From positions 149,093-213,092 of the forward strand of contig MHSR01000013.1 of NCBI GenBank assembly GCA_001822815.1: a stretch of DNA of 64,000 nt, in the 5' to 3' direction. The notes beneath the pieces were generated by a model. The model worked only from the letters and a program-made list of their open reading frames with translations. It made no database searches and was not told the DNA's origin. Below, piece after piece: positions 10,364-63,806 of this stretch (positions are counted from its first letter, which is position 1; the number at the start of each line of letters is the position of its first letter). The position numbers and the translations under genes are program-made. This DNA is from Candidatus Terrybacteria bacterium RIFCSPHIGHO2_01_FULL_43_35 (GTDB taxonomy: Bacteria; Patescibacteriota; Minisyncoccia; Terrybacterales; GWB1-40-14).

Positions 10364-12343
10364 ATGAAACATCACGCCTCGCATCAAAATAAGTTTTTAA
10401 GTCGCCAGTTTTTAGTTGTTTTCGCGGCTTTTTTACTTGGCGCAGGCTTTTTGTTTTTTGCGCCAAGCGCGCTAGCTGTAACGTGTTCAGTAGAGTATAC
10501 CTACTGTCCTTCTTCTTGCCCGTCTAGCCCGAACCTTAGTTTGCCAGACAACTGCACGAGCTATGCCAATACTTATTCTTGTACAGGCGCTGAATCTTTT
10601 GGCGGTGCAGCAAGGCGCTATAGAACCACAACGTCATACTATTGGGGTAGCCCAAGTAAGTATTGCTATTCTTCGATGGCAGAATTTGGGTGCGTATATA
10701 CGCGACTTACAAGTTCCAGTAGAGTTGATTGCACTGCTGGTTACACAAACTCGCCCTGCTCTTCCGAAACTCCACCTGGAAGCAAATTGTATAGTCAATG
10801 CCCATCTAATTCATCACAAAATTTAGATTGGGCCTGTAAATACCGTTTGTGTCGGGTATCAAACGCAACGTGTGGGGGGCCTGACAGCGGGTGGTTTAAC
10901 GGCGTTATATGTGTATATTCTTCATGCGGTACCGATTCATGTATCAGTTCCACTACGCTTCGTGATCGGCACTGCTCAACATCAAGCGATACGTGTACTT
11001 ATACCGATGTTAATTGCGGTTCGCCCAGCTATAGTTGCAGCGGCGACACCATTAATTATTGCAACCGAGGGTGTTCAAGCGCATCTTGTTTCAGTTCATG
11101 TTCTTCGGTCGCAACTTGCAGTAATGTTACCGGATCGTCATATTGTTCCGGGACACAATCGGCAACAAAGGTTGTACATAACGTTACCGATAAATATTGC
11201 AGTAGCGGCTCCAGCACGTGCGGAACCGGCTCAATCAGCGTTGTTACGGATAGAACCTGCACAACTTCATATTCTTGTAGCGCAGATAATACAAGCGTTA
11301 TTGCAACCTGCAGTGCGACTGGCGGCTCGCCCCAAAGAACCTGTTCCGACACTTGGACTAGCCAAACTTGCGCCGCAAACCAGATTTGTTCAGCCGGAGC
11401 ATGCATTGCAGATGCCGCACCAATAGTAACCACTACCCCAGCAACGTCTATAACACAGACATCCGCGACCCTTAACGGCACGGTCAATCCAAACGGCTAC
11501 GCAACCACAGCTTGGTTTAGATACAGTACTACAAGCCCAGGAGGCTGTAATGACATCTTTGGCACTCGCGCACCAGCAAGTGGAGGTTTTAGTGCCGGCA
11601 GCGGTACTTCAGCGCTCGCGTATCCCCAGGGCATTTCTGGCTTGACCGAAGGCAACACTTATTATTATTGCGCTATTGCCAATAATTCTGGTGGTAATGG
11701 TTACGGCGCCATATTGTCATTTTTGACGTCTAGCGCGGCACCAGTTACGCTTTCGGCGTCATTGTCAGCAAATCCAGCTTCGGGGTCAGCGCCATTTGAT
11801 ACCACACTGACCACAAATGTTGTTTATGACGGCAATATTTCAGACACGATAAATTACAGTTATTGGTGGGACTGTTCCGATGTCACCAATAGTGTTGCGG
11901 GAGCCTCGGCCTCCTGTGGAATTCTTCCGTCTCCTGCCGCCGGCTCATGCGCATCAAATAGCGACGGCCACAAATGCAATGCGGTTTTAACCAATCCCCA
12001 TTCTGTTGGTAATATCTATGCTTCCACCGGAAGCTATACAGCCAAAGTTATCGTTGAAAGAGGAGGCGCTACTCCGGCCACAAGCTCAGCGCCGATTTCC
12101 GTAGGCGTTTTACCGCCTGTGACAGGTTGCATAAATGAATGTTATCCGCCAAACACTAACGAATGCACTACTCTAACTTCTTACCGTACATGTGGTGAAG
12201 TCGGCGATGGCGATGCCTGTTTGGAGTGGGTGCCGCTTGGAGCTGTGCCAGGCGCTACCGCTACTCCATGCCCCACGGGCTATACTTGTCTTGTCGGCCA
12301 ATGTTTTCCCGTGCCAGGTTGGATAGAAGTTCCACCGAAATAA
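10364..12343 (+). CDS. extremely cysteine-rich secreted protein with FN3/PKD-like middle domains
   Basis: signal peptide (MKHH...FFAPSALA); ~330 aa N-terminal region with dozens of Cys; ATLNGTVNPNGYATTAWFRYS FN3-like segment; C-terminal Cys-knot-like tail; likely start 10364 (ORF track 10223 overlaps upstream gene). Confidence 0.6.
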   Translation: MKHHASHQNKFLSRQFLVVFAAFLLGAGFLFFAPSALAVTCSVEYTYCPSSCPSSPNLSLPDNCTSYANTYSCTGAESFGGAARRYRTTTSYYWGSPSKYCYSSMAEFGCVYTRLTSSSRVDCTAGYTNSPCSSETPPGSKLYSQCPSNSSQNLDWACKYRLCRVSNATCGGPDSGWFNGVICVYSSCGTDSCISSTTLRDRHCSTSSDTCTYTDVNCGSPSYSCSGDTINYCNRGCSSASCFSSCSSVATCSNVTGSSYCSGTQSATKVVHNVTDKYCSSGSSTCGTGSISVVTDRTCTTSYSCSADNTSVIATCSATGGSPQRTCSDTWTSQTCAANQICSAGACIADAAPIVTTTPATSITQTSATLNGTVNPNGYATTAWFRYSTTSPGGCNDIFGTRAPASGGFSAGSGTSALAYPQGISGLTEGNTYYYCAIANNSGGNGYGAILSFLTSSAAPVTLSASLSANPASGSAPFDTTLTTNVVYDGNISDTINYSYWWDCSDVTNSVAGASASCGILPSPAAGSCASNSDGHKCNAVLTNPHSVGNIYASTGSYTAKVIVERGGATPATSSAPISVGVLPPVTGCINECYPPNTNECTTLTSYRTCGEVGDGDACLEWVPLGAVPGATATPCPTGYTCLVGQCFPVPGWIEVPPK

Positions 12344-54205: not shown

Positions 54206-54559
54206 ATGTCTAAAGGATTAACAAATAGCAACGACAAAGCATTGCCTTTTGAGCCCAATCTTGATGCCCAAGCTTCTTCGCACCGTTCATGGTATGTTCG
54301 TTGTTTCGTATGCCCTCAGGCCTACATGGGACTACATAGAGCCATAAATGTGTATGCCGATAGTTTTAAAATCGCAACCCAGTTAGTTGTTTTGTTTCTA
54401 GGCCGCGCGTACGTTGTTCCGGCCGGTCAAGAAGATAAATTTTCTATAGCTATCGGCGCATGTGATGAGCATGCTTCCAATCTTGATAAGTTGGTTGCGT
54501 TGACCCGGGACTCAAAGACAATTAATGCCGCTGTTGTGCGTGAGGCTCAAAACGCTTAA
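54206..54559 (+). CDS. hypothetical protein
   Basis: ORF only. Confidence 0.3.
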   Translation: MSKGLTNSNDKALPFEPNLDAQASSHRSWYVRCFVCPQAYMGLHRAINVYADSFKIATQLVVLFLGRAYVVPAGQEDKFSIAIGACDEHASNLDKLVALTRDSKTINAAVVREAQNA

Positions 54560-54810
54560 TTTTAAAAACGGCCAAATCATAAGCCGTTTTTATTTTTTGC
54601 TAAACTTAAGATATCGTTTAAATGTTTGTTGCTTGACGCCCTCAGCGCCTAATTGCTTTAGTGATGCGCGATTGGGCACACCTTTCTTCTATCATTGCGT
54701 AGTGTATCAGTAAAAAGAATTTAAATGAGATGATAAAAATAGATTAGAACTTAGGATTGCCTACTAGGCTATAGTAACTATTTCTATTCTGAATGTTATA
54801 ATGAGTTATT

Positions 54811-55436
54811 ATGCGGATTCATTCAGTGGACAAAATTAAAGAACTGAGAAAATTACGACGTAAAGGCCACAGCATCAATGAACTTGTTTCACTATGCGTC
54901 ATTCCAAAAACTACCGTATGGTATCATATCCATAATATTAAACTTTTGCCAAAATATGAAAAAACTTTAAAAGCTAAGATAGGAGGGAATACGCAACGCA
55001 AGCAAAAAAGATTAGAAGTAGCTAGAAAAAACGCAGCACAATTATTGAGGGGTTCAGATAGGGATTTATCAATTGCAATCGCAATGCTTTATTGGGGAGA
55101 GGGCAACAAAAAAGTTGCGAATTTATTAACTCAGATGGCTGTATGATACGAGTTTATTTGTTTATATTGAGGGAAGTATTCCGCATTCCCGAAGAATTTA
55201 TAAAACCAACAATGAGGATTTTTGATGGTATGGATAAAACGCAATGCTTACAGTATTGGGCCGATGTTACCAATATTCCTAAGAACAAATTTATTATCCG
55301 ATACAACGATGGTGGAACTAGAGGAAGAACAAAATACGGTATGTGCAGAATAACTGTTAGAAAAGGAAGTAATGTTTTAAAAGTAATTCATTCTTTGGTT
55401 GATCAGTTTTCTGATGAAATATTAAAAGCGACATAG
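54811..55436 (+). pseudogene. HTH-containing gene apparently split by a frameshift at an A6 run (~55110-55120); ORF pieces 54811-55146 and 55092-55436
   Basis: two overlapping ORFs in adjacent frames; HSINELVSLCVIPKTTVWYHI HTH-like; LYWGEGNKK / FINSDGC motifs faintly LAGLIDADG-like. Confidence 0.4.
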
Positions 55437-55445
55437 ATTTTGAAA

Positions 55446-55518
55446 GCCCTCGTAGCTCAACGGATTAGAGCGCTCCCGTCCTAAGGGATCGATCGGGGTT
55501 CAATTCCTCGCGAGGGCA
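55446..55518 (+). tRNA. tRNA-Arg (anticodon CCU), no encoded CCA
   Basis: manual cloverleaf: GCCCTCG acceptor, D stem GCTC/GAGC, anticodon loop GTCCTAA, T arm CGGGG-TTCAATT-CCTCG. Confidence 0.75.
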
Positions 55519-55690
55519 CAGTCTACATTTTTTAGCGAGGGACCGAGTGGCCCGGCTCGCAAGGGCGACCGATATACCTTGTTTTGCAAGGCATTTTTGT
55601 TTTATCTAGATTCGAATCCTGTTTTGCTGTGGGAATTGCCAAGTAGTATAGTGTAAGTAGTAGCATCACTATAATCATATATAATTATTC

Positions 55691-58600
55691 ATGAATAAAT
55701 TTTCTTTTTTATGTAAATGCGGCGCCATCCTTTTTGGCGTTTTTTTGTTCATTACAATACCAACTTTAGCGCATGCTAAAGATTTCGTAGAGGGAACAGG
55801 AACGCATTTTGAAATTCAAGGTAGCCAATATTTAGATGTTACTCTTGATAGCTCAGAAGAGGTTAAAGTTCGTTTAGATTCGGTGCCGCAAATGATTTTA
55901 TTGAATATAGAATCAACAAACGTATCTACTTCCACAAACATTATGCTCTCTGGTTTGGAGCCCAACCACACCTATTATAAATACCAAGATGATTATCACA
56001 ATCTCACCGAAGTCCTAACAGACGCTCAAGGCGCATATTCATACGCTCAAGACATTTCTATACCACGTTTTATTTTCATCCAACCAACCCCAGGCACCAA
56101 GTTTATAAGCGATAGCGCAACGGGCGGGGACTGCACAACTATTGGTAATTGGAATTCCGCGACTAAAACCTGCACGCTTACAGGCAACGTTAATCAAACT
56201 ATTCAAATTGATAGCGATGGCATAACATTGGATGGAGCCGGTTACGCAAATACGGGTTCAAATACTGGATTTGGAGTTTATGTTTATCAAAAATTAGATA
56301 TTACGATTAAAAACGTAACCCTTTCCGCATTTACCATTGGAATTTATGCCTTACGTTCTTCTTATAATCAGTTCATAAACAATATTTTTTCATATAATCA
56401 ATTTGGCATAGCTATGGATCTATCGACCAACGCCACGGTCGCCAATAACATTATGACCATAAATAATAGAGGTATCTATGCATTCGCGAATCCTGATAAT
56501 CCGACATCAGACCATATAATCTACGGCAATCACATCAGCGGTAGTATAATAGCCGGAATTCACCTGGCTTTTAATGCGGGGGACACGGTTTACAAGAACC
56601 ACATCGAAAATAATGATATTGGAATTTTTCTGCAATACTTTTCCGGGGTAGGCTCATATACTGTTTATAACAATAATTTTATTAATAATGTCTCTCAAGC
56701 GCTTAGTGTCGACGGCCAAACCGTTGCTAATCTCGATAAACCCATTGGGGGCAATTATTGGAGCGATTATGACGCTCCTGCTGAAGGTTGCAATGATGCA
56801 AACAGCGATAACTTTTGCGACGCGCCTTACATTTTCAACTACGGTCAGGATAATTTACCATGGATAATTCAAGACGGGTGGACCTTGCTACCAGAAACAG
56901 AAGTTGCCTTCAATAGCGCCTCATCAACCCCCAACGTACTTTTAAATGCCGAACCGGTTAATACTCTTTACGGTAATTATCTTCGCGCAGAAAATAACTT
57001 AAAAGTTCCTGGCTTGGGAGTAACCACTGAATTTTCTGCTTCATATAATTCACTTTCAGAAGAAGCAGGTTCGCTTGGCCACAAATGGACGCATAACTAT
57101 GCAATGCGTATTGATTTATATTCTGATGGCGTTGTCGTTGTAAATGAAGACGGCAGACAAGATGCATATGAAAAAAATGGCGGCATATATACTCCACGTC
57201 CGGGCATCTTTGATGCGCTCGTTAAGAATCAAGACGATTCATTCACGCTTACGCGCAAGAACCAAACCGTGTTTGAGTTTGATGCAGACGGCATCCTCGA
57301 AACTATCAGCGACAAGAACGGTAACACAACTACATTGGTGCATACAAGCGGTCTTTTAACCAGTGTTACGGATGCCGTGGGCCGTACCACCCAATTTACA
57401 TACGACACAGAAAATCGAATTATCACCGTTACTGACCCTGCCAACCAGCAATTCAATTATACGTACGACACAGCCGGGGACTTGGTTACGTTTACGAATC
57501 CTAATAGCGAAATAGCAACGTATTTCTATGACACAGACCACAACCTCACGAAAATAGTGGACGCCAACGGCCATACGGTTGTTGAAAATACATACCAGGA
57601 TGGTCAAGTTGTTTTGCAGAAAGACGGTTTGGGAAATCAAACCACATATTCTTACAGCACAACTCCAACCCGTAGTACATTAATTACTGATCCCAGAGGC
57701 GGTCAAACAACTCATATCTATGATGCTGACTTACGAATTGCAACAGTTATTGATGCTTTAGGTAATACAACCGCATATGAATATGACGCGAACAATAACC
57801 GTATAAGTATTACGGATGACAATAATCATGAAACTACATTTACATATGACGCCCACGGGAATGTCCTTACCATCACTGACCCGTTGAACAATACGACCAC
57901 GTTCACCTACGACAGTAAAAATAACGTGCTTACAGAAACAAACGCTCGTAATTTCACCACAACGTTTACTTATGACGCCAACAGCAACCTTCTTACGGTA
58001 ACGGATGCCTTAAGCGGCGTTACAATATTTACCTACAATACGCTTGGTCAGCTCATAGAAAAAGAAGACGCGCGTGGCAACAGCGCATTCTTTACTTACG
58101 ATACATACGGAAATGTAAACAAAATCACTGATGCATTAGGAAATGAAACGCATCTTACGTTTGATGTTTTGTCGCGCCTCACATCTATTACAGACGCATT
58201 AAATCATACTTCAAGTACAACGTATGACGCAGTTGGACGGTTGTTAACTACAACTGATCCGTTGAATAACACAACTACATTTGTATATGATGATGTTGGT
58301 AATCTTGTATCTGTTATAGACGCAAAAAGTCAAACAACTACTTATTTATACGACGCTAATAACCGTCTTACGCAAGTTACAGATGCCGTAAGTGGCATAA
58401 CCACATATAGTTATGACGCTACTAATAACCGCACGGCTGTACATGACGCAAATAACAACACAACGAATTATGAATATAGCTTGGTTAATAAACTCACTAA
58501 ACAAATTGATGCCCTAAGCGCGCAAACTCAATATCAGTACGATGGAGTAGGTAATGTTACGAGCTATATAAATGCCAACGGTCAGACAGTTGGTTTTGCC

Positions 58601-60205
58601 TATGATGCCAATAACCGCCTAACCACAAAAACTTTCCCAGGCAGTATTCTGAACGTATATACCTATGACGCCAATGGGAACGTAACAAGCGCGGCAAATC
58701 TTGCTGTAGCATATTCCTATACCTATGACGCTTTAGATAGATTAATTGTGGTTGGTGGTCCCGGCGTGTTTTCTACAAATACATACATTTATGATTTAAA
58801 CGGCAACAAAATATCTTTTCAGGCAGAGGCGCAAAATCAAACCATAATTAACAACACGTATGCTTATGATGTCTTAAACCGTCTCACAAGCATTACAGAC
58901 AAGGCCAGCCGCGTATATAGCTTTACCTATGATTCGGCATCTCGCCGTACAAACTTAAGCTATCCCAACAATACCGCAATTTCATACGCGTATGATGCCG
59001 CAGACCGTCTGTTGCAGCTTACAAACACAGATTCGCAAAGCAATGTCTTTGCCGAATCTATATACACATACGATCAGATAGGGAATCGTTTAAGTAATTC
59101 AAACGAAAAGAAATTATCCGCATATGCGTATGATGCGTTATCTCGTGTCACCCAAGTTCAAGAGAAATTAAAGCCGTTAAGCGAACACCCGAATTTCCAA
59201 ACAACAGAACAATATTCGTATGACGCTGTTGGGAACCGTTTAACTGGCCCGGTATTGGGAAATTACACATATAACGCAGCCAATGAAGCGTTAACCGCGC
59301 CAAGCATGCTGTTAACCTATGACGCAAACGGCAATATATCAACAAAAATTGCTTCACCGTTAGCGTGGGCTTATACTTATGACCCTGAAAATCGTCTAAC
59401 TCAATTACAGAAGACAGACCCAATTGACAACAGAACATTTGAGTATAAGTATGACCCATTCGGTCGTAGAATAGAATACAAGGTTATTGCTGGTAATCAG
59501 ACTACAATCAGTAAGTATTTATACGATAATGAGGATATTGCTTTTATTACTGATGGTTCAAACGTCATAACCCACGCATTTGTGCATGGGCCTGGTATAG
59601 ATGAACCCTTAGCATTTATCGACACAAACAATGTTCCATATTTCTACATGTACGACGGCCTCGGGTCTGTTGTCGGGTTAACGGATAATAACCAGCATGT
59701 TGCAGAAAGATATGATTACGATTCATTCGGAGGTTATCTTGGGCAGGGGGCGAATGCCACAAAACAACCCTATACGTTTACTGGAAGGGAATACGATCAA
59801 GAAGCCGAACTCTACTATTACCGTACACGATATTACGACCCAGCCATAGGACGATTCATATCGAGGGATATCATCCCAGGTTTTGTTTTTAATCCGCAAA
59901 CCATCAATTCCTATACGTATGTATTGAACAATCCCCAAAGATTTGTTGATCCGTTTGGATTAGAGGCACAAGCTTCATCTGTTTTTACTTTCGATAACAC
60001 GGAAGCTTTTGAATTTATTGGGAAAACACAAGAAAAAATAAAAAAGATTTTTAGTGATCCCGAGGCAATTTTGACTTTATCTGAGGATTTCATAAATCTG
60101 GCCCTGCTCGTTATCTATAAATCTATGGATCCGATAGGTCCATTTATATTCCCGCCACTTGGATCACCAGTAGTAAATCCTTCTTATAAACAAACTCAAA
60201 CATGA
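55691..60205 (+). CDS. rhs: Rhs/YD-repeat polymorphic toxin: signal peptide, right-handed beta-helix (PbH1) region, YD repeats, RHS core ending DPFGL, ~80-aa C-terminal toxin tail
   Basis: beta-helix repeats (NNIFSYNQFGIAMD...), >30 YD repeats (TFTYDANSNLLTVTDA...), YVLNNPQRFVDPFGL RHS core motif. Confidence 0.85.
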   Translation: MNKFSFLCKCGAILFGVFLFITIPTLAHAKDFVEGTGTHFEIQGSQYLDVTLDSSEEVKVRLDSVPQMILLNIESTNVSTSTNIMLSGLEPNHTYYKYQDDYHNLTEVLTDAQGAYSYAQDISIPRFIFIQPTPGTKFISDSATGGDCTTIGNWNSATKTCTLTGNVNQTIQIDSDGITLDGAGYANTGSNTGFGVYVYQKLDITIKNVTLSAFTIGIYALRSSYNQFINNIFSYNQFGIAMDLSTNATVANNIMTINNRGIYAFANPDNPTSDHIIYGNHISGSIIAGIHLAFNAGDTVYKNHIENNDIGIFLQYFSGVGSYTVYNNNFINNVSQALSVDGQTVANLDKPIGGNYWSDYDAPAEGCNDANSDNFCDAPYIFNYGQDNLPWIIQDGWTLLPETEVAFNSASSTPNVLLNAEPVNTLYGNYLRAENNLKVPGLGVTTEFSASYNSLSEEAGSLGHKWTHNYAMRIDLYSDGVVVVNEDGRQDAYEKNGGIYTPRPGIFDALVKNQDDSFTLTRKNQTVFEFDADGILETISDKNGNTTTLVHTSGLLTSVTDAVGRTTQFTYDTENRIITVTDPANQQFNYTYDTAGDLVTFTNPNSEIATYFYDTDHNLTKIVDANGHTVVENTYQDGQVVLQKDGLGNQTTYSYSTTPTRSTLITDPRGGQTTHIYDADLRIATVIDALGNTTAYEYDANNNRISITDDNNHETTFTYDAHGNVLTITDPLNNTTTFTYDSKNNVLTETNARNFTTTFTYDANSNLLTVTDALSGVTIFTYNTLGQLIEKEDARGNSAFFTYDTYGNVNKITDALGNETHLTFDVLSRLTSITDALNHTSSTTYDAVGRLLTTTDPLNNTTTFVYDDVGNLVSVIDAKSQTTTYLYDANNRLTQVTDAVSGITTYSYDATNNRTAVHDANNNTTNYEYSLVNKLTKQIDALSAQTQYQYDGVGNVTSYINANGQTVGFAYDANNRLTTKTFPGSILNVYTYDANGNVTSAANLAVAYSYTYDALDRLIVVGGPGVFSTNTYIYDLNGNKISFQAEAQNQTIINNTYAYDVLNRLTSITDKASRVYSFTYDSASRRTNLSYPNNTAISYAYDAADRLLQLTNTDSQSNVFAESIYTYDQIGNRLSNSNEKKLSAYAYDALSRVTQVQEKLKPLSEHPNFQTTEQYSYDAVGNRLTGPVLGNYTYNAANEALTAPSMLLTYDANGNISTKIASPLAWAYTYDPENRLTQLQKTDPIDNRTFEYKYDPFGRRIEYKVIAGNQTTISKYLYDNEDIAFITDGSNVITHAFVHGPGIDEPLAFIDTNNVPYFYMYDGLGSVVGLTDNNQHVAERYDYDSFGGYLGQGANATKQPYTFTGREYDQEAELYYYRTRYYDPAIGRFISRDIIPGFVFNPQTINSYTYVLNNPQRFVDPFGLEAQASSVFTFDNTEAFEFIGKTQEKIKKIFSDPEAILTLSEDFINLALLVIYKSMDPIGPFIFPPLGSPVVNPSYKQTQT

Positions 60206-60471
60206 TCACCTTATTTTTAGTAATAAGCGGTTTATTGCTTATTATAATTGGCTTATCAAATAAAGCTCGTAAAGAACCACCCGTACCAATAGCCGTATTT
60301 GGCGTAAGGCCGACGCCGTCCAGATTTGCCGCGCTTCCGTTAGGTATCATATTTATATCTATTGGCGTGTTTATGATTATTTATCCAATAAACGCATTAA
60401 TTTCTTATATGATTATTGCACTTAGCGTTTTGATTGCAACGATTGTTTATTGGCCACATATCAAAAAATGA
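60202..60471 (+). CDS. putative Rhs immunity protein (small membrane protein)
   Basis: 2 TM helices; immediately downstream of rhs toxin tail. Confidence 0.45.
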   Translation: MITLFLVISGLLLIIIGLSNKARKEPPVPIAVFGVRPTPSRFAALPLGIIFISIGVFMIIYPINALISYMIIALSVLIATIVYWPHIKK

Positions 60472-61322
60472 TCCTTGAAAGTGAAAGTAAATCTCAATTT
60501 AGCCATCAGCTATTTAATGCTTGGTTAAACGGTCTATGGCCGCAAGATAACGACCCCTTCGGAAGACGGATAGAGTACAAGGTTATTGCTGGTAACCAGA
60601 CTACAATCAGTAAGTATTTATACGATAATGAAGATATTGCTTTTATTATTGACGGTTCAAACGTCATAACCCACGCATTTGTGCATGGGCCAGGCATTGA
60701 TGAGCCAATTGCTTTTACGGATGTTAACAATACGCCATATTTCTACATGTACGACGGCCTCGGGTCTGTTGTCGGGCTTACCAACAACTCAGAGCATGTT
60801 GCTGAAAGTTACGATTACGATAGCTTTGGACGGTATCTTGGACAGGGGAGTAATGCTATAAAACAACCTTATACGTTTACCGGACGAGAGTTCGATCAAG
60901 AATCAGAGTTGTATTACTACCGCGCCCGTTACTACGATCCTCAAATAGGGAGGTTTATTTCGCGAGATGCCTTCGGTGGTTTCCCCGATATTCCTTCAAC
61001 GCTTCATCGCTACACGTACGTAAGGAACAATCCAATAAACGACATTGATCCAAGCGGGAATATTGATATTTCTGCTGCAGAACGACTTCAAGCTTCGCTT
61101 CCTGATACGCTTAATAGGATTGCGGATGTTTTTGAGCTGTATGGAGTTGGGGTAAAAACTCCTTATGCGCCAGAACAGATTGGTTTTACGGTCCAATATA
61201 TTGGGCTCAGTTTTGGCATTCCTATTGATCCCGGATTGGTTGCTGTGGGCGTGAAGGCAACTGGCGTCTTTTCTTCTTTGCTTTCTAAAACTCTTCATAC
61301 GATAGCTAAAAATTTACGTTAA
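60468..61322 (+). CDS. orphan rhs C-terminal fragment with alternative toxin tail
   Basis: homologous to rhs 59450-59930 (DPFGRRIEYKVIAGNQTTISKYLYDNEDIAF...YYRARYYDP..GRFISRD), ends in DPSGN core variant then distinct ~95-aa tail; ATGA overlap with upstream gene. Confidence 0.6.
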   Translation: MILESESKSQFSHQLFNAWLNGLWPQDNDPFGRRIEYKVIAGNQTTISKYLYDNEDIAFIIDGSNVITHAFVHGPGIDEPIAFTDVNNTPYFYMYDGLGSVVGLTNNSEHVAESYDYDSFGRYLGQGSNAIKQPYTFTGREFDQESELYYYRARYYDPQIGRFISRDAFGGFPDIPSTLHRYTYVRNNPINDIDPSGNIDISAAERLQASLPDTLNRIADVFELYGVGVKTPYAPEQIGFTVQYIGLSFGIPIDPGLVAVGVKATGVFSSLLSKTLHTIAKNLR

Positions 61323-61332
61323 ATTTATAAAT

Positions 61333-61662
61333 ATGAACACAGAAAAATTTTATAACATATTTTTTGCTTTAGGCGGTATTGTGATTGCCTTTATTTATTT
61401 ATTTCTTTTTATATGGTTTTTAAAGCGGCGAGCTCATAAGATAAAATTTATCATAAGCCAAGAAAAAAGCGTGATTATTGACGATAAATTAAAAACATAT
61501 GGGTGGATTATTTTTATTTTAACCCTTCCGACTTGGTTTTTGATTACATCCGATATTCTTAACGACCAACCTTTTTTACTCGATGTGGTGGCAAGTATTG
61601 ATTTGTTATTAACTTATGTAGCAATTAGGTTTTGGCTTGCCAGCATCAAACCAAAAGAATGA
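61333..61662 (+). CDS. putative immunity protein (membrane)
   Basis: TM helices, position after orphan toxin tail. Confidence 0.4.
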   Translation: MNTEKFYNIFFALGGIVIAFIYLFLFIWFLKRRAHKIKFIISQEKSVIIDDKLKTYGWIIFILTLPTWFLITSDILNDQPFLLDVVASIDLLLTYVAIRFWLASIKPKE

Positions 61663-62729
61663 TTCTTGAAAACCAACAAATAAAACATCAAATCTTCAAC
61701 GCCTGGCTAAATAGTCTTTTGCCAAAAGACGCCAACGGCAACATATCAACAAAAATTGCTTCGCCATTAGCGTGGGCTTATACTTATGACCCGGAAAATA
61801 GATTAACCCAACTTTCTAAGACGGATCCGATTGATAACCGTACATTTCAATACGCATATGATCCATTTGGAAGACGAATAGAATACAAGGTTATTGCAGG
61901 GAACCAGACTACAATCAGTAAGTATTTATACGATAATGAGGATATTGCTTTTATTACTGATGGTTCAAATACAGTTACGCATGCATTCGTGCATGGACCT
62001 GGAATTGATGAGCCGTTGGCGTTTACCGATGTTAACAACACGCCGTATTTCTATTTGTACGATGGTTTGGGAAGCGTTGTCGGATTAACTGATAACAACC
62101 AGCATGTGGCTGAAAGATACGATTACGATTCATTCGGACGTTATCTGGGACAGGGCAATAACGCCATAAAACAACCCTACACGTTCACTGGTAGGGAATA
62201 TGATCAGGAAAGCGGGCTATATTACTACAGGGCGCGTTATTATGATCCGACCATAGGACGATTTATTTCGAGGGATCCTATCTCTAATAATAATCCCGAT
62301 TTGGTATCATCCAATGTTTATAGTTATGTAGAAAATAATCCTGTCACTAGAACTGATCCGATGGGACTGTGGTACATAGACGTTAATGGTTCCGTTGGTT
62401 TTTGGGGCGGCATTACAGCCGGATTCTTAATAGGCTCAGAAGGATTTTATTATTACGTAGGTGGGGGGATAGTTACTCCGCTTGCTGGCTTATCTCTAAC
62501 ATATTCTCCAAATAATCCCACAGTTGGTCTGAATGCTGGTGCGCAGGCCGGTTTTGGTATTGGTGGCCAGGCTGGCTACAGTTATGAAGACGGTAAAGAG
62601 CCGTTCCGAGAGTATGGATTGGTTACTCCCGGCGTATCGGTAACCGTTTACGAAGTATTCAAGGTTCAACTGCCCTCGTTTTTAAAAAATGAAGTTGAAG
62701 CAGCATTTACAGAAAATAATGAAAAATAA
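61659..62729 (+). CDS. second orphan rhs C-terminal fragment with distinct Gly-rich toxin tail
   Basis: homology to rhs 59330-59930 begins at DANGNISTKIASPLAWAYTYDPENRLTQL; DPMGLW core then unique tail. Confidence 0.6.
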   Translation: MILENQQIKHQIFNAWLNSLLPKDANGNISTKIASPLAWAYTYDPENRLTQLSKTDPIDNRTFQYAYDPFGRRIEYKVIAGNQTTISKYLYDNEDIAFITDGSNTVTHAFVHGPGIDEPLAFTDVNNTPYFYLYDGLGSVVGLTDNNQHVAERYDYDSFGRYLGQGNNAIKQPYTFTGREYDQESGLYYYRARYYDPTIGRFISRDPISNNNPDLVSSNVYSYVENNPVTRTDPMGLWYIDVNGSVGFWGGITAGFLIGSEGFYYYVGGGIVTPLAGLSLTYSPNNPTVGLNAGAQAGFGIGGQAGYSYEDGKEPFREYGLVTPGVSVTVYEVFKVQLPSFLKNEVEAAFTENNEK

Positions 62730-62749
62730 TAATTAATACGTTAAATAAT

Positions 62750-62947
62750 ATGATTAATAATATCGGAGATATAATTTTTTTTCTTGTTGGGATAGCGTGT
62801 ATAGTTTTTAGTAAGCAGATCGGACATGCTACAAGCGGCTTTCATAAAAAATTAGGATATAACTTTAGTGAGAGGGGCTATCGAATAGCCTTTATTTTAG
62901 CCGGAACCCTTTTTGTCCTTTTTAGTTTATCAAACCTCTTGCGATAG
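62750..62947 (+). CDS. putative immunity protein (small membrane protein)
   Basis: 2 TM helices, position. Confidence 0.35.
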   Translation: MINNIGDIIFFLVGIACIVFSKQIGHATSGFHKKLGYNFSERGYRIAFILAGTLFVLFSLSNLLR

Positions 62948-62996
62948 GCCGATATACTATTTCTTAAGTAAAAAGCAATAGATTCAATAGTAAAAA

Positions 62997-63806
62997 ATGA
63001 TTCCTGAAACCGAAAATGGTGAATATGCGGTTCAAGTTATCGGAACAGGCGAAGGGAGCTACACATTAGATTCTCTGGCAGTAGATGCAGATGGCGCACC
63101 GCATACCGCAACGTTTGCGGGCAACACTAACATCAACATTCAAGCGGTATACGATCTTTCCTATGATGCCGCACAGCCGCAAAATATAACTATAGTTTCT
63201 GAAGACACGACTGCGCCGATAATCACGCATACCGCCATCAACCCACAATATCTTCTAAACACAGCCTCAATCCCACTTAGCTTCGATACAAACGATAGTG
63301 GTACTGGCATTTATCGGCTTGAGGTCAATCTTGACGGGTCGCCATTAACATCTGGTCAGTTTTTGGCTTTTACCGTTCCGGGCAACCATCTCATTCGTAT
63401 TTCGGCAGAGGATTTCGTTGGCAATGTGCGAACCGAGGAAATTCCGTTTGCTGTCGTATATCAGTTCAGTGGGTTTCTTTCACCGATCAAGGCTGATGGT
63501 AGCGGCATTTATAATCTTGGCCGGACTTTACCTGTGAAGTTCCAACTTACGGATGCGAATGGCGTCTTCGTATCGACGGCCGTTGCCCAACTTCTTGCCG
63601 CAAAAATCCAAGATGGCATTGTTGGAACTGAAGAAGTCCCGCTTTCAAGCTCTGTTGCGGATATCGGGAATCTTTTTAGATACGATTCTTCTACCCAGCA
63701 ATATATCTACAATCTTGCGACCTCATCATTAGGTCTTGGCACGTGGCAACTTAAGGTTGTTCTCGATGACGGAAAGAACTATACGGTTGTTATTTCGCTG
63801 CATTAA
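62997..63806 (+). CDS. hypothetical protein (Ig-like beta-rich)
   Basis: ORF only. Confidence 0.35.
   Translation: MIPETENGEYAVQVIGTGEGSYTLDSLAVDADGAPHTATFAGNTNINIQAVYDLSYDAAQPQNITIVSEDTTAPIITHTAINPQYLLNTASIPLSFDTNDSGTGIYRLEVNLDGSPLTSGQFLAFTVPGNHLIRISAEDFVGNVRTEEIPFAVVYQFSGFLSPIKADGSGIYNLGRTLPVKFQLTDANGVFVSTAVAQLLAAKIQDGIVGTEEVPLSSSVADIGNLFRYDSSTQQYIYNLATSSLGLGTWQLKVVLDDGKNYTVVISLH

Follow-up and report, generated by a model that had tools for sequence, protein, structure and literature searches.

A leader module at the cassette boundaries of a predicted Rhs toxin/immunity array in Candidatus Terrybacteria

An Rhs array with two orphan cassettes

The DNA analyzed here, referred to as the window, is a 64-kb stretch of the genome of Candidatus Terrybacteria (Parcubacteria, candidate phyla radiation [CPR]) from Rifle aquifer groundwater. 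Positions 55691-62947 hold one compact array on the + strand, laid out from the map of open reading frames (ORFs) and the raw sequence of the window: a full-length rhs gene, imm1, orphan 1 (O1), imm2, orphan 2 (O2) and imm3 (Table 1). All of these genes are annotated as hypothetical in database records. A preliminary description of this DNA had called it an Rhs polymorphic toxin locus with two orphan rhs-CT/immunity cassettes, CT being the variable C-terminal tail. Domain matches and DNA repeats bear this out, and the array is best described as an Rhs/YD-repeat locus in which each variable tail, a predicted toxin, is followed by a small ORF, its putative immunity gene. The subject of this report is a short leader peptide with which both orphans begin, at a start codon overlapping the stop of the immunity gene before it.

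Gene order is the same in seven independent assemblies. Six of them are 100% identical over the portion of 59601-63100 that each covers, and the seventh carries two base differences within the array. A scan of the array found no convincing intergenic terminators, and promoter-like (sigma-70-like) sites were not enriched and were uninformative; by its layout the array would form a single tight, operon-like unit. The genome hardly uses Shine-Dalgarno (SD) sequences, with a GGAG, GAGG or AGGA motif upstream of only 2 of the 33 ORFs of at least 200 aa across the window. Gene starts in the window are generally preceded by A/T-rich stretches, and the A-rich, SD-less sequence before the leader ATGs resembles these ordinary starts.

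The main Rhs protein matches PF05593 RHS_repeat in 19 stretches (E 2.6e-101) and TIGR01643 (E 9.3e-80), with further Pfam matches to NosD/parallel beta-helix at residues 175-361 and to DUF6531, and a match to Rhs_assc_core (TIGR03696) at residues 1343-1424 (E 4.3e-20). NosD, DUF6531 and RHS_repeat were the only domains returned by the Pfam scan, which found no PAAR, VgrG or cell-wall-binding domain, the NosD-type beta-helix being present instead of the latter. The N-terminus has a basic n-region, a hydrophobic core and a cleavage-type motif of AHA followed by K; the signal peptide call is a reading of the sequence, not predictor output. These features predict a Sec-exported, WapA-like Rhs protein independent of the type VI secretion system.

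Table 1. Features of the Rhs array and its immediate surroundings (window coordinates).
Feature	Coordinates	Strand	Remarks
tRNA-Arg(CCT)	55446-55519		immediately upstream of rhs; confirmed
Full-length rhs, 1504 aa	55691-60205	+	ORF; Pfam and NCBIfam matches
Predicted Sec signal peptide	55691-55777	+	MNKFSFLCKCGAILFGVFLFITIPTLAHA, cleaved before KD; read by eye from sequence
Identity tract in core, ~65 nt	59498-59562 = 60597-60661 (O1) = 61905-61969 (O2)	+	encodes QTTISKYLYDNEDIAFI...
DPFGL autoproteolysis/demarcation motif	59948-59962	+	sequence; end of TIGR03696 match
Main tail CT-main, 80 aa	59963-60202	+	follows DPFGL; no known family
ATGA overlap	60202-60205	+	rhs stop / imm1 start; raw sequence
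imm1, 89 aa	60202-60471	+	ORF, start overlaps rhs stop; predicted membrane protein
ATGA overlap	60468-60471	+	imm1 stop / O1 start; raw sequence
Orphan 1 (O1), 284 aa counted from ATG	60468-61322	+	ORF
Leader 1, 28 codons	60468-60551	+	ATG overlaps imm1 stop (ATGA)
O1 core fragment, DPFGRR to DPSGN	60552-61061	+	~80% nt identity to main core; TIGR03696 E 1.1e-22
O1 tail CT-o1, ~86 aa + stop	61062-61322	+	no known family
imm2, 109 aa	61333-61662	+	ORF; predicted membrane protein
ATGA overlap	61659-61662	+	imm2 stop / O2 start; raw sequence
Orphan 2 (O2), 356 aa	61659-62729	+	ORF
Leader 2, 24 codons	61659-61730	+	ATG overlaps imm2 stop (ATGA)
O2 core fragment, ANGNIS to DPMGL	61731-62369	+	DNA repeats; TIGR03696 E 1.9e-24
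O2 tail CT-o2, 119 aa + stop	62370-62729	+	18% Gly, GxxxG runs; no relatives detected
imm3, 65 aa	62750-62947	+	ORF; predicted two-helix membrane protein
Third, truncated leader-start copy	62987-63015	+	AAAAAATGATTCCTGAAACC; after imm3; 23/29 nt match O1's

A leader shared by both orphans

O1 begins with the leader MILESESKSQFSHQLFNAWLNGLWPQDN, after which the core starts at DPFGRR, and O2 with MILENQQIKHQIFNAWLNSLLPKD, after which the core starts at ANGNIS; the peptide sequence ...QLFNAWLNGLWPQDNDPFGR spans the leader-core junction. The leaders are 24-28 aa long with the consensus H-x-[LI]-F-N-A-W-L-N-x-L-x-P. Searched by tblastn against all six frames of the window, the O1 leader found only itself and O2 (E 2.5e-7). 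No frame of the main rhs gave a match, which confirms that the leader is common to the orphans and absent from the main gene and rules out that it is rhs core read in another frame. The ATGA overlap of each orphan start with the preceding immunity stop, also part of the preliminary description, is read directly in the sequence and occurs at the rhs/imm1 junction as well. The gene callers of NCBI, ENA and JGI all start both orphans at these ATGs. The two leader-core junctions fall at different YD-repeat positions, 39 residues apart.

The leaders of O1 and O2 are far more similar as peptides than as DNA. The FNAWLN residues are encoded by synonymously different codons, TTTAATGCTTGGTTAAAC in O1 and TTCAACGCCTGGCTAAAT in O2, and the 22 differences over ~72 aligned nt are distributed 6/3/13 over the three codon positions. 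In the orphan frame, the proportions of synonymous (pS) and nonsynonymous (pN) differences are 1.0 and 0.16, respectively, against a pS of 0.16-0.23 and a pN of 0.31-0.39 when the same alignment is read in the two other frames; the flanking core, for comparison, has a pS of 0.61-0.72 and a pN of 0.07-0.09. When the 22 differences were placed at random, as few nonsynonymous changes arose in 1 of 5000 placements. Among four leaders (O1, O2 and those of loci L017 and L005, described below), pN was well below pS in all six pairwise comparisons. This pattern points to purifying selection on the leader as a protein, in the orphan frame only, and together with the agreement of the three gene callers it favors the earlier suggestion that the orphans may be translated independently. 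Because of their synonymous divergence relative to the core, the leaders are at least as old as the core copies and not the product of a recent duplication within this genome.

Structure prediction with AlphaFold2 (AF2) placed a helix at residues 11-22 of leader 1, with low confidence, and at residues 2-19 of leader 2, with a predicted local distance difference test (pLDDT) score of 61-68. An amphipathic or membrane-binding helix was ruled out, the hydrophobic moment being no greater than in shuffled sequences. A conserved RNA structure at the stop/start junction was also ruled out, as the consensus fold reached -1.8 kcal/mol with no conserved hairpin.

Leader copies at other cassette boundaries

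Additional copies of the leader start are found beyond the orphans themselves. The 16-nt pattern AAWGATTCYTGAAAMC has exact matches in the window only at 61658 and 62996, the latter within the truncated copy downstream of imm3. This copy supplies the ATG of a 269-aa ORF (62997-63806) with an OmpL47-type barrel and a PxKF domain and without a signal peptide; the first ~7 codons of the ORF and ~10 nt upstream copy the leader start. The ORF looks like a 5'-truncated surface-protein gene that gained a leader ATG.

A leader profile searched against 1.84 billion representative proteins returned three matches, all of them leader-core ORFs, and no free-standing or donor gene with this N-terminus was found among those proteins. 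A degenerate DNA scan for H-x-[LI]-FN-x-WL... gave no matches in 185,579 species genomes, and in a metagenome collection it recovered only the window organism (L009) and an L005-type locus (L010). Looking for the leader in other orphan arrays, an idea of the preliminary description, was nonetheless productive: the family is known from three independent loci, namely the window organism, L005/L010 and L017, the latter two also being Parcubacteria rhs loci. In L005/L010, the main Rhs is 1520 aa long and has a LamG-type N-terminus; it is followed by a membrane immunity protein of 169 aa and an orphan that starts with VPKTLNRKTEFELCHLLFNSWLQSLYPPE followed by YAYDTADRLL, from a GTG codon 12 nt past the immunity stop. 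The L005 leader, from another genome, matches only the two window leaders (E 3.8e-4 and 2e-3). L017 consists of an rhs 3' end, a 112-aa immunity protein, an ATGA overlap and the leader MILENQKINHQIFNAWLSSLYPE followed by NRTFQYKYDPFGRRIEKKV, after which the core is lost. Its immunity stop/leader start region is nearly identical to that of O2 (~50/55 nt around the ATG, counted by hand). Across the family, leader and core meet at four different junctions, all of them in frame.

Orphans of other groundwater Rhs arrays carry leaders of unrelated sequence. Family-2 leaders (...LLIRR[LV]I..L....Y[IL][NQ].L) start the orphans of L011, L013 and L014 and are preceded by ~25 nt of conserved DNA, AAAAGGGGAC.GGCT.ATTTAAATGA. 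Here too pS lies above pN (L011 versus L013a, pS 0.43 and pN 0.02). Copies of this leader also follow the last immunity gene of L011, L013 and L014 as stand-alone stubs, such as MRNLMINRNKILSYLLLQRLLVYAP and a stop codon in L014, and L014 has one degenerate, stop-interrupted leader at ~6926. A scan of the species genomes for LLIRR...Y[IL][NQ] gave three matches, all of them outside any Rhs locus and set aside as chance. An hhalign comparison does not support homology of families 1 and 2 (P 0.011, probability 3.8%). A third, unrelated family, MLATAKEE...ELPDDNNGN, is present on two of the three orphans of L022 (973-2103 and 5594-6679; JGI 3300023223). In the window and in L011, L013 and L014, a leader copy follows every immunity gene examined, terminal ones included. 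These arrangements suggest that what recurs is the position of the module and not its sequence.

Several further features of these arrays were observed. In L022, ~60 nt of nearly identical DNA lies upstream of both leaders, the middle orphan has no leader, and a helix-turn-helix (HTH) gene is encoded within the array on the other strand. The array of L011 ends at 11481-11545 with two tandem copies of AAAAAAGGGGA[TC]AGGCT, the upstream part of the family-2 module, directly followed by an IS200-type Y1 transposase gene (11565-12020). In L014 (7030-7329), an Rhs core remnant ending ...NNPVNFV runs directly into the leader module (ENGKGDGSN, a stop codon and ATG); its toxin and immunity genes are missing, and the module occupies the exact place of DPxGL.

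Core repeats and recombination between copies

O1 and O2 each lie downstream of a full-length rhs with its immunity gene, retain the 3' part of the core and carry a different CT with its own immunity gene. Alignment of the core to locate breakpoints, as the preliminary description had envisaged, showed that the orphans are homologous to the main rhs at the DNA level (81-83%). Positions 59453-59752 correspond to 60552-60851 (83%) and 61860-62159 (81%), and positions 59321-59620 to 61728-62027 (83%), the homology of O2 to the main core beginning at 61728. The reuse of core sequence first put at 300-500 bp is real and somewhat longer, ~170 codons in O1 and ~214 codons in O2. TIGR03696 is matched by all three proteins, which carry the two Asp residues of the predicted autoprotease and in which the core motif ends RFISRD...DPFGL (main), ...DPSGN (O1) and ...DPMGL (O2). 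In O1, the DPSGN motif at 61047-61061 has the final Leu of DPxGL replaced by N, which may affect autoproteolysis. The AF2 model of O2 contains a confident beta-sheet core with shell strands at pLDDT >90, and Foldseek aligns this core with the C-terminal portion of Rhs shells of known structure (8qja, E 1.2e-13; also 8h8b, 8cp6 and 7q97).

A sliding divergence profile along the main gene, O1 and O2 shows that core divergence is a mosaic. The ~65-nt tract listed in Table 1 is essentially identical in the three copies, and the surrounding core is 20-30% diverged; the tract looks like a gene-conversion or recombination hot spot. Three related sequences bear on this. In L021, from the same aquifer, the main Rhs is fused to CT-o2 at a junction inside the ~65-nt tract, and imm1, O1 and imm2 are missing. 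P0001 is a chimera of the O1 leader and 5' core with the main 3' core and CT. L009 (Ga0209211_10175590, 1465 nt), from the same population, contains an O1 in which one patch resembles O2 (95% identity to 61860-62026) and window positions 60720-60811 are absent (92 nt, a frameshift); either natural conversion or deletion between O1 and O2 or an artefact of assembly may account for it. Together, L021, P0001 and L009 would match the expected products of toxin switching and unequal crossing-over. An apparent variant O1 in L029 was rejected as a mutation, as it is most likely a scaffold gap with a contig not aligning across ~86 nt. The apparent crossovers map to core identity tracts and not to the leader, at odds with the leader being a recombination module as the preliminary description had considered. 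Because synonymous sites have reached saturation between the O1 and O2 leaders and no conserved hairpin was found, the leader is unlikely to be a homologous-recombination arm within this genome.

Toxin tails and immunity proteins

None of the three tails, which are unrelated to one another, matched Pfam at E<=10. CT-o2, the only tail searched further, had no PDB match and no homologue, in agreement with the initial impression that the tails are unrecognizable. The main tail was initially placed at 60130-60205; it is in fact longer, beginning directly after DPFGL (Table 1). The AF2 models of the tails had pLDDT <50, too poor for a fold search, and it is possible that these are novel toxins.

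The products of imm1, imm2 and imm3 are small, each with two to three hydrophobic segments. A homologue of Imm1 is the 112-aa immunity protein of L017 (blastp E 4.9e-9), and the tail beside it is similar in size to CT-main. Since the immunity proteins are in all three cases small and predicted to reside in the membrane, the toxins probably act on membranes, with a depolarizing action the likeliest by analogy to the systems discussed below.

Upstream region

The preliminary description had also noted a tRNA-Arg and a frameshifted HTH gene upstream of the array, in keeping with a genomic island. The tRNA is present and so is a split gene, consisting of two overlapping ORFs of 111 and 114 aa in different frames (54811-55436) that are called as two genes in every assembly. 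Neither ORF alone nor the two joined gave a Pfam match that would bear out the HTH label; a GEGNK motif in this gene may hint at a LAGLIDADG-like protein. Over 54500-62000, which takes in the array and the two ORFs before the tRNA, GC content is 0.32-0.44, compared with 0.46-0.51 in the flanks, a modest drop that comes without a matching att repeat or integrase. As no repeat of the tRNA-Arg of at least 11 nt was found in the 6 kb beyond the array, and no integrase, a tRNA-integrated genomic island is not supported. An integron-like or site-specific cassette is not supported either: there is no recombinase gene in or beside the array and no conserved hairpin, and the leaders are diverged at the DNA level.

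Interpretation of the boundary module

The array is predicted to comprise an active toxin/immunity cassette and two displaced ones. After each immunity gene comes a short boundary module that extends from about -12 to +75 around the ATG and contributes the last codons and stop of the immunity ORF, the overlapping start codon and the 24-28 aa in-frame leader. Downstream, the module is fused to a core fragment (O1 and O2) or to the truncated PxKF gene (after imm3). With moderate confidence, we propose that the leader provides displaced cassettes with a coupled translation start, that the orphans are translated by re-initiation and that the toxins are probably membrane-acting. In this model, the whole array would be one polycistronic message, and ribosomes ending on an immunity gene would re-initiate at the overlapping ATG. 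The orphans would be made as cytoplasmic "mini-Rhs" proteins in which the leader precedes the final YD strands, followed by the autoprotease core and then the toxin. Long orphan stretches would stay translated, such that downstream immunity genes could still be expressed, and co-expression of toxin and immunity could produce an addiction-like, toxin-antitoxin (TA)-like maintenance effect. The ~80%-identical core repeats with their short identity tracts would allow main and orphan cassettes to be swapped by homologous recombination. A stronger version of this proposal holds that a translated leader mini-ORF after every immunity gene makes the orphans an independently translated, working second tier, the peptide having a function of its own such as docking to the membrane immunity protein or controlling shell folding or cleavage; we regard this version as tentative and rather doubtful.

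Several observations weigh against translation coupling by the leader. Translation of the orphans is deduced solely from substitution patterns, and the constraint may stem from donor lineages. The leader is short, so that pS and pN are based on ~24 codons, and the family is known from only three independent loci. The ATGA overlap is missing in L005 (12-nt gap) and in the other leader families, where 0 to ~400 nt separate the stop from the leader start. The predicted leader helix reaches a pLDDT of only 51-68 and is not amphipathic beyond chance. The four junction positions and the toxin-less stub of L017 are hard to reconcile with a structural role in a mini-Rhs, and an anti-polarity or start-codon role alone leaves the conserved residues H, F, N, W, L, L and P unexplained. 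The L021 and P0001 recombinants, for their part, may be assembly chimeras at the repeat.

The main rival explanation is that the leader is a passive junction scar: the 5' end of an ORF once located downstream of an ancestral rhs-immunity pair, fused to the core by tandem duplication and carried along since as the right flank of the cassette, with the orphans a silent reservoir and the peptide functionless. It explains both the position after every immunity gene, with terminal copies either standing alone as stubs or joined to an unrelated gene, and the lineage specificity of three unrelated leader families. The varying leader-core junctions fit as well, as do the degenerate L014 leader and the orphans of L014 and L022, whose leaders and junctions are near-identical within an array, the outcome expected of duplication. 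Drift, however, should affect all codon positions equally, and synonymous change, which is saturated, far exceeds nonsynonymous change among the O1, O2, L017 and L005 leaders. A scar would also not account for junctions that are all in frame, and no intact donor gene appeared among the 1.84 billion representative proteins. On balance we consider the scar somewhat unlikely.

A DNA-level role, in which the leader is an attC-like site or a cassette-exchange arm for CT-immunity capture, would suit its presence at the 3' boundary of every cassette, and the ~50/55 nt shared by O2 and L017 around the ATG could represent a right-hand arm for exchange among close relatives; beside one such array (L011) there is also a Y1 transposase gene. 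Against this, 22 of ~72 nt differ between the O1 and O2 leaders, mostly at third positions, which is too diverged for an arm and the opposite of what a sequence-specific site would show. With no hairpin conserved (-1.8 kcal/mol), no recombinase gene in or beside the window array and junctions falling in core identity tracts instead of the leader, such an element is improbable. Programmed -1 frameshifting as the ribosome reaches the immunity stop, yielding an immunity-orphan fusion that would anchor the orphan toxin to the membrane, was considered since imm1 ends ATC AAA AAA TGA, where P-site slippage on the run of A would shift the ribosome into the orphan frame at the ATG. This run is not conserved, as imm2 and the L017 immunity gene end AAA GAA TGA and L005 has a 12-nt gap, and no stimulatory RNA structure was found, making a frameshift very improbable. 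Finally, a short peptide in a metagenome-assembled genome with repeats might reflect chance similarity or an ORF-calling or assembly artefact. This is hardly credible given the E value of 2.5e-7 within the window, the same leader at two other loci from other samples, and an array that is identical in six assemblies and two bases off in a seventh.

Comparison with known systems

Orphan rhs-CT/rhsI modules downstream of a full-length rhs are known in Enterobacteria, including Dickeya, Salmonella and E. coli (Poole et al. 2011, PMC3150448; Koskiniemi et al. 2014, PMC3967940). The Terrybacteria orphans resemble these in lying downstream of an rhs-rhsI pair, in retaining a partial core that includes PxxxxDPxGL and in carrying a different CT with its own immunity gene. 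A toxin switch by homologous recombination with the main gene is a further likeness, for which L021 and P0001 are candidates here. Orphan cdiA-CT/cdiI arrays of contact-dependent inhibition (CDI) systems are likewise made up of displaced toxin/immunity pairs that retain part of the conserved pre-toxin region, and their immunity genes are expressed (PMC3150448). They differ from the present array in using two-partner secretion and a VENN instead of a DPxGL boundary, with no leader module described. Classical orphans are described as having no translation initiation signals, as stated for cdiA-CT orphans (PMC3150448). In contrast, each orphan described here has a conserved leader that brings its own ATG; this leader is missing from the main gene, overlaps the immunity stop and is coding-constrained, and a copy also follows the last immunity gene.

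The main Rhs protein invites a different comparison. WapA of Bacillus subtilis is a Sec-dependent Rhs toxin of Gram-positive bacteria. A WapA-type Sec-dependent Rhs toxin is also reported from Streptococcus suis (PMC12704120). The Terrybacteria protein likewise begins with a predicted signal peptide, continues with a YD-repeat shell and ends in a putative polymorphic toxin, with an immunity gene downstream, and is without PAAR or VgrG; unlike WapA, it has a NosD-type beta-helix and DUF6531 in place of cell-wall-binding repeats and a CPR host. Membrane-depolarizing tails with small membrane immunity proteins are exemplified by Tse5-CT of an Rhs protein, the CDI ionophores (PMC11630599) and the glycine-zipper toxin EsxX (PMC12744356). 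The tails described here are likewise short and hydrophobic or Gly-rich and paired with small predicted membrane immunity proteins, a likeness in composition and context alone; no sequence or profile similarity to these toxins was found. The locus would be a Sec-type Rhs weapon with three unrecognizable tails in the CPR, a group little studied for interbacterial antagonism.

Orphan cassettes are commonly regarded either as silent spares that gain importance only once they recombine with the main gene or as sources of immunity genes. In Salmonella Typhimurium, internally expressed Rhs-CT/immunity pairs act as type II TA-like modules (Starsta et al. 2020, PMC7043789), and the orphans there are expressed from internal promoters and a weak CTG start inside the core, the resulting toxin fragment arising within the producing cell and being neutralized by the cognate immunity protein (PMC7043789). 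The orphans of this study are similar in pairing an Rhs C-terminal fragment that lacks the delivery part with a cognate immunity gene, and by analogy may function in the same way; the Salmonella case offers a plausible selective reason for keeping orphans translated. The start differs, being a dedicated non-core leader ATG coupled to the upstream immunity stop. In the literature searched, which gives orphans no start signals or weak internal starts, we found no description of a conserved leader module. If the leaders are translated, the orphans of these lineages are expressed genes, addiction and anti-polarity could explain the upkeep of long toxin arrays, and the leader would provide a simple, searchable marker of cassette boundaries. 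Set beside these systems, the architecture of a main Rhs with orphans is ordinary, and the leader/boundary module is a real and apparently undescribed variant of it.

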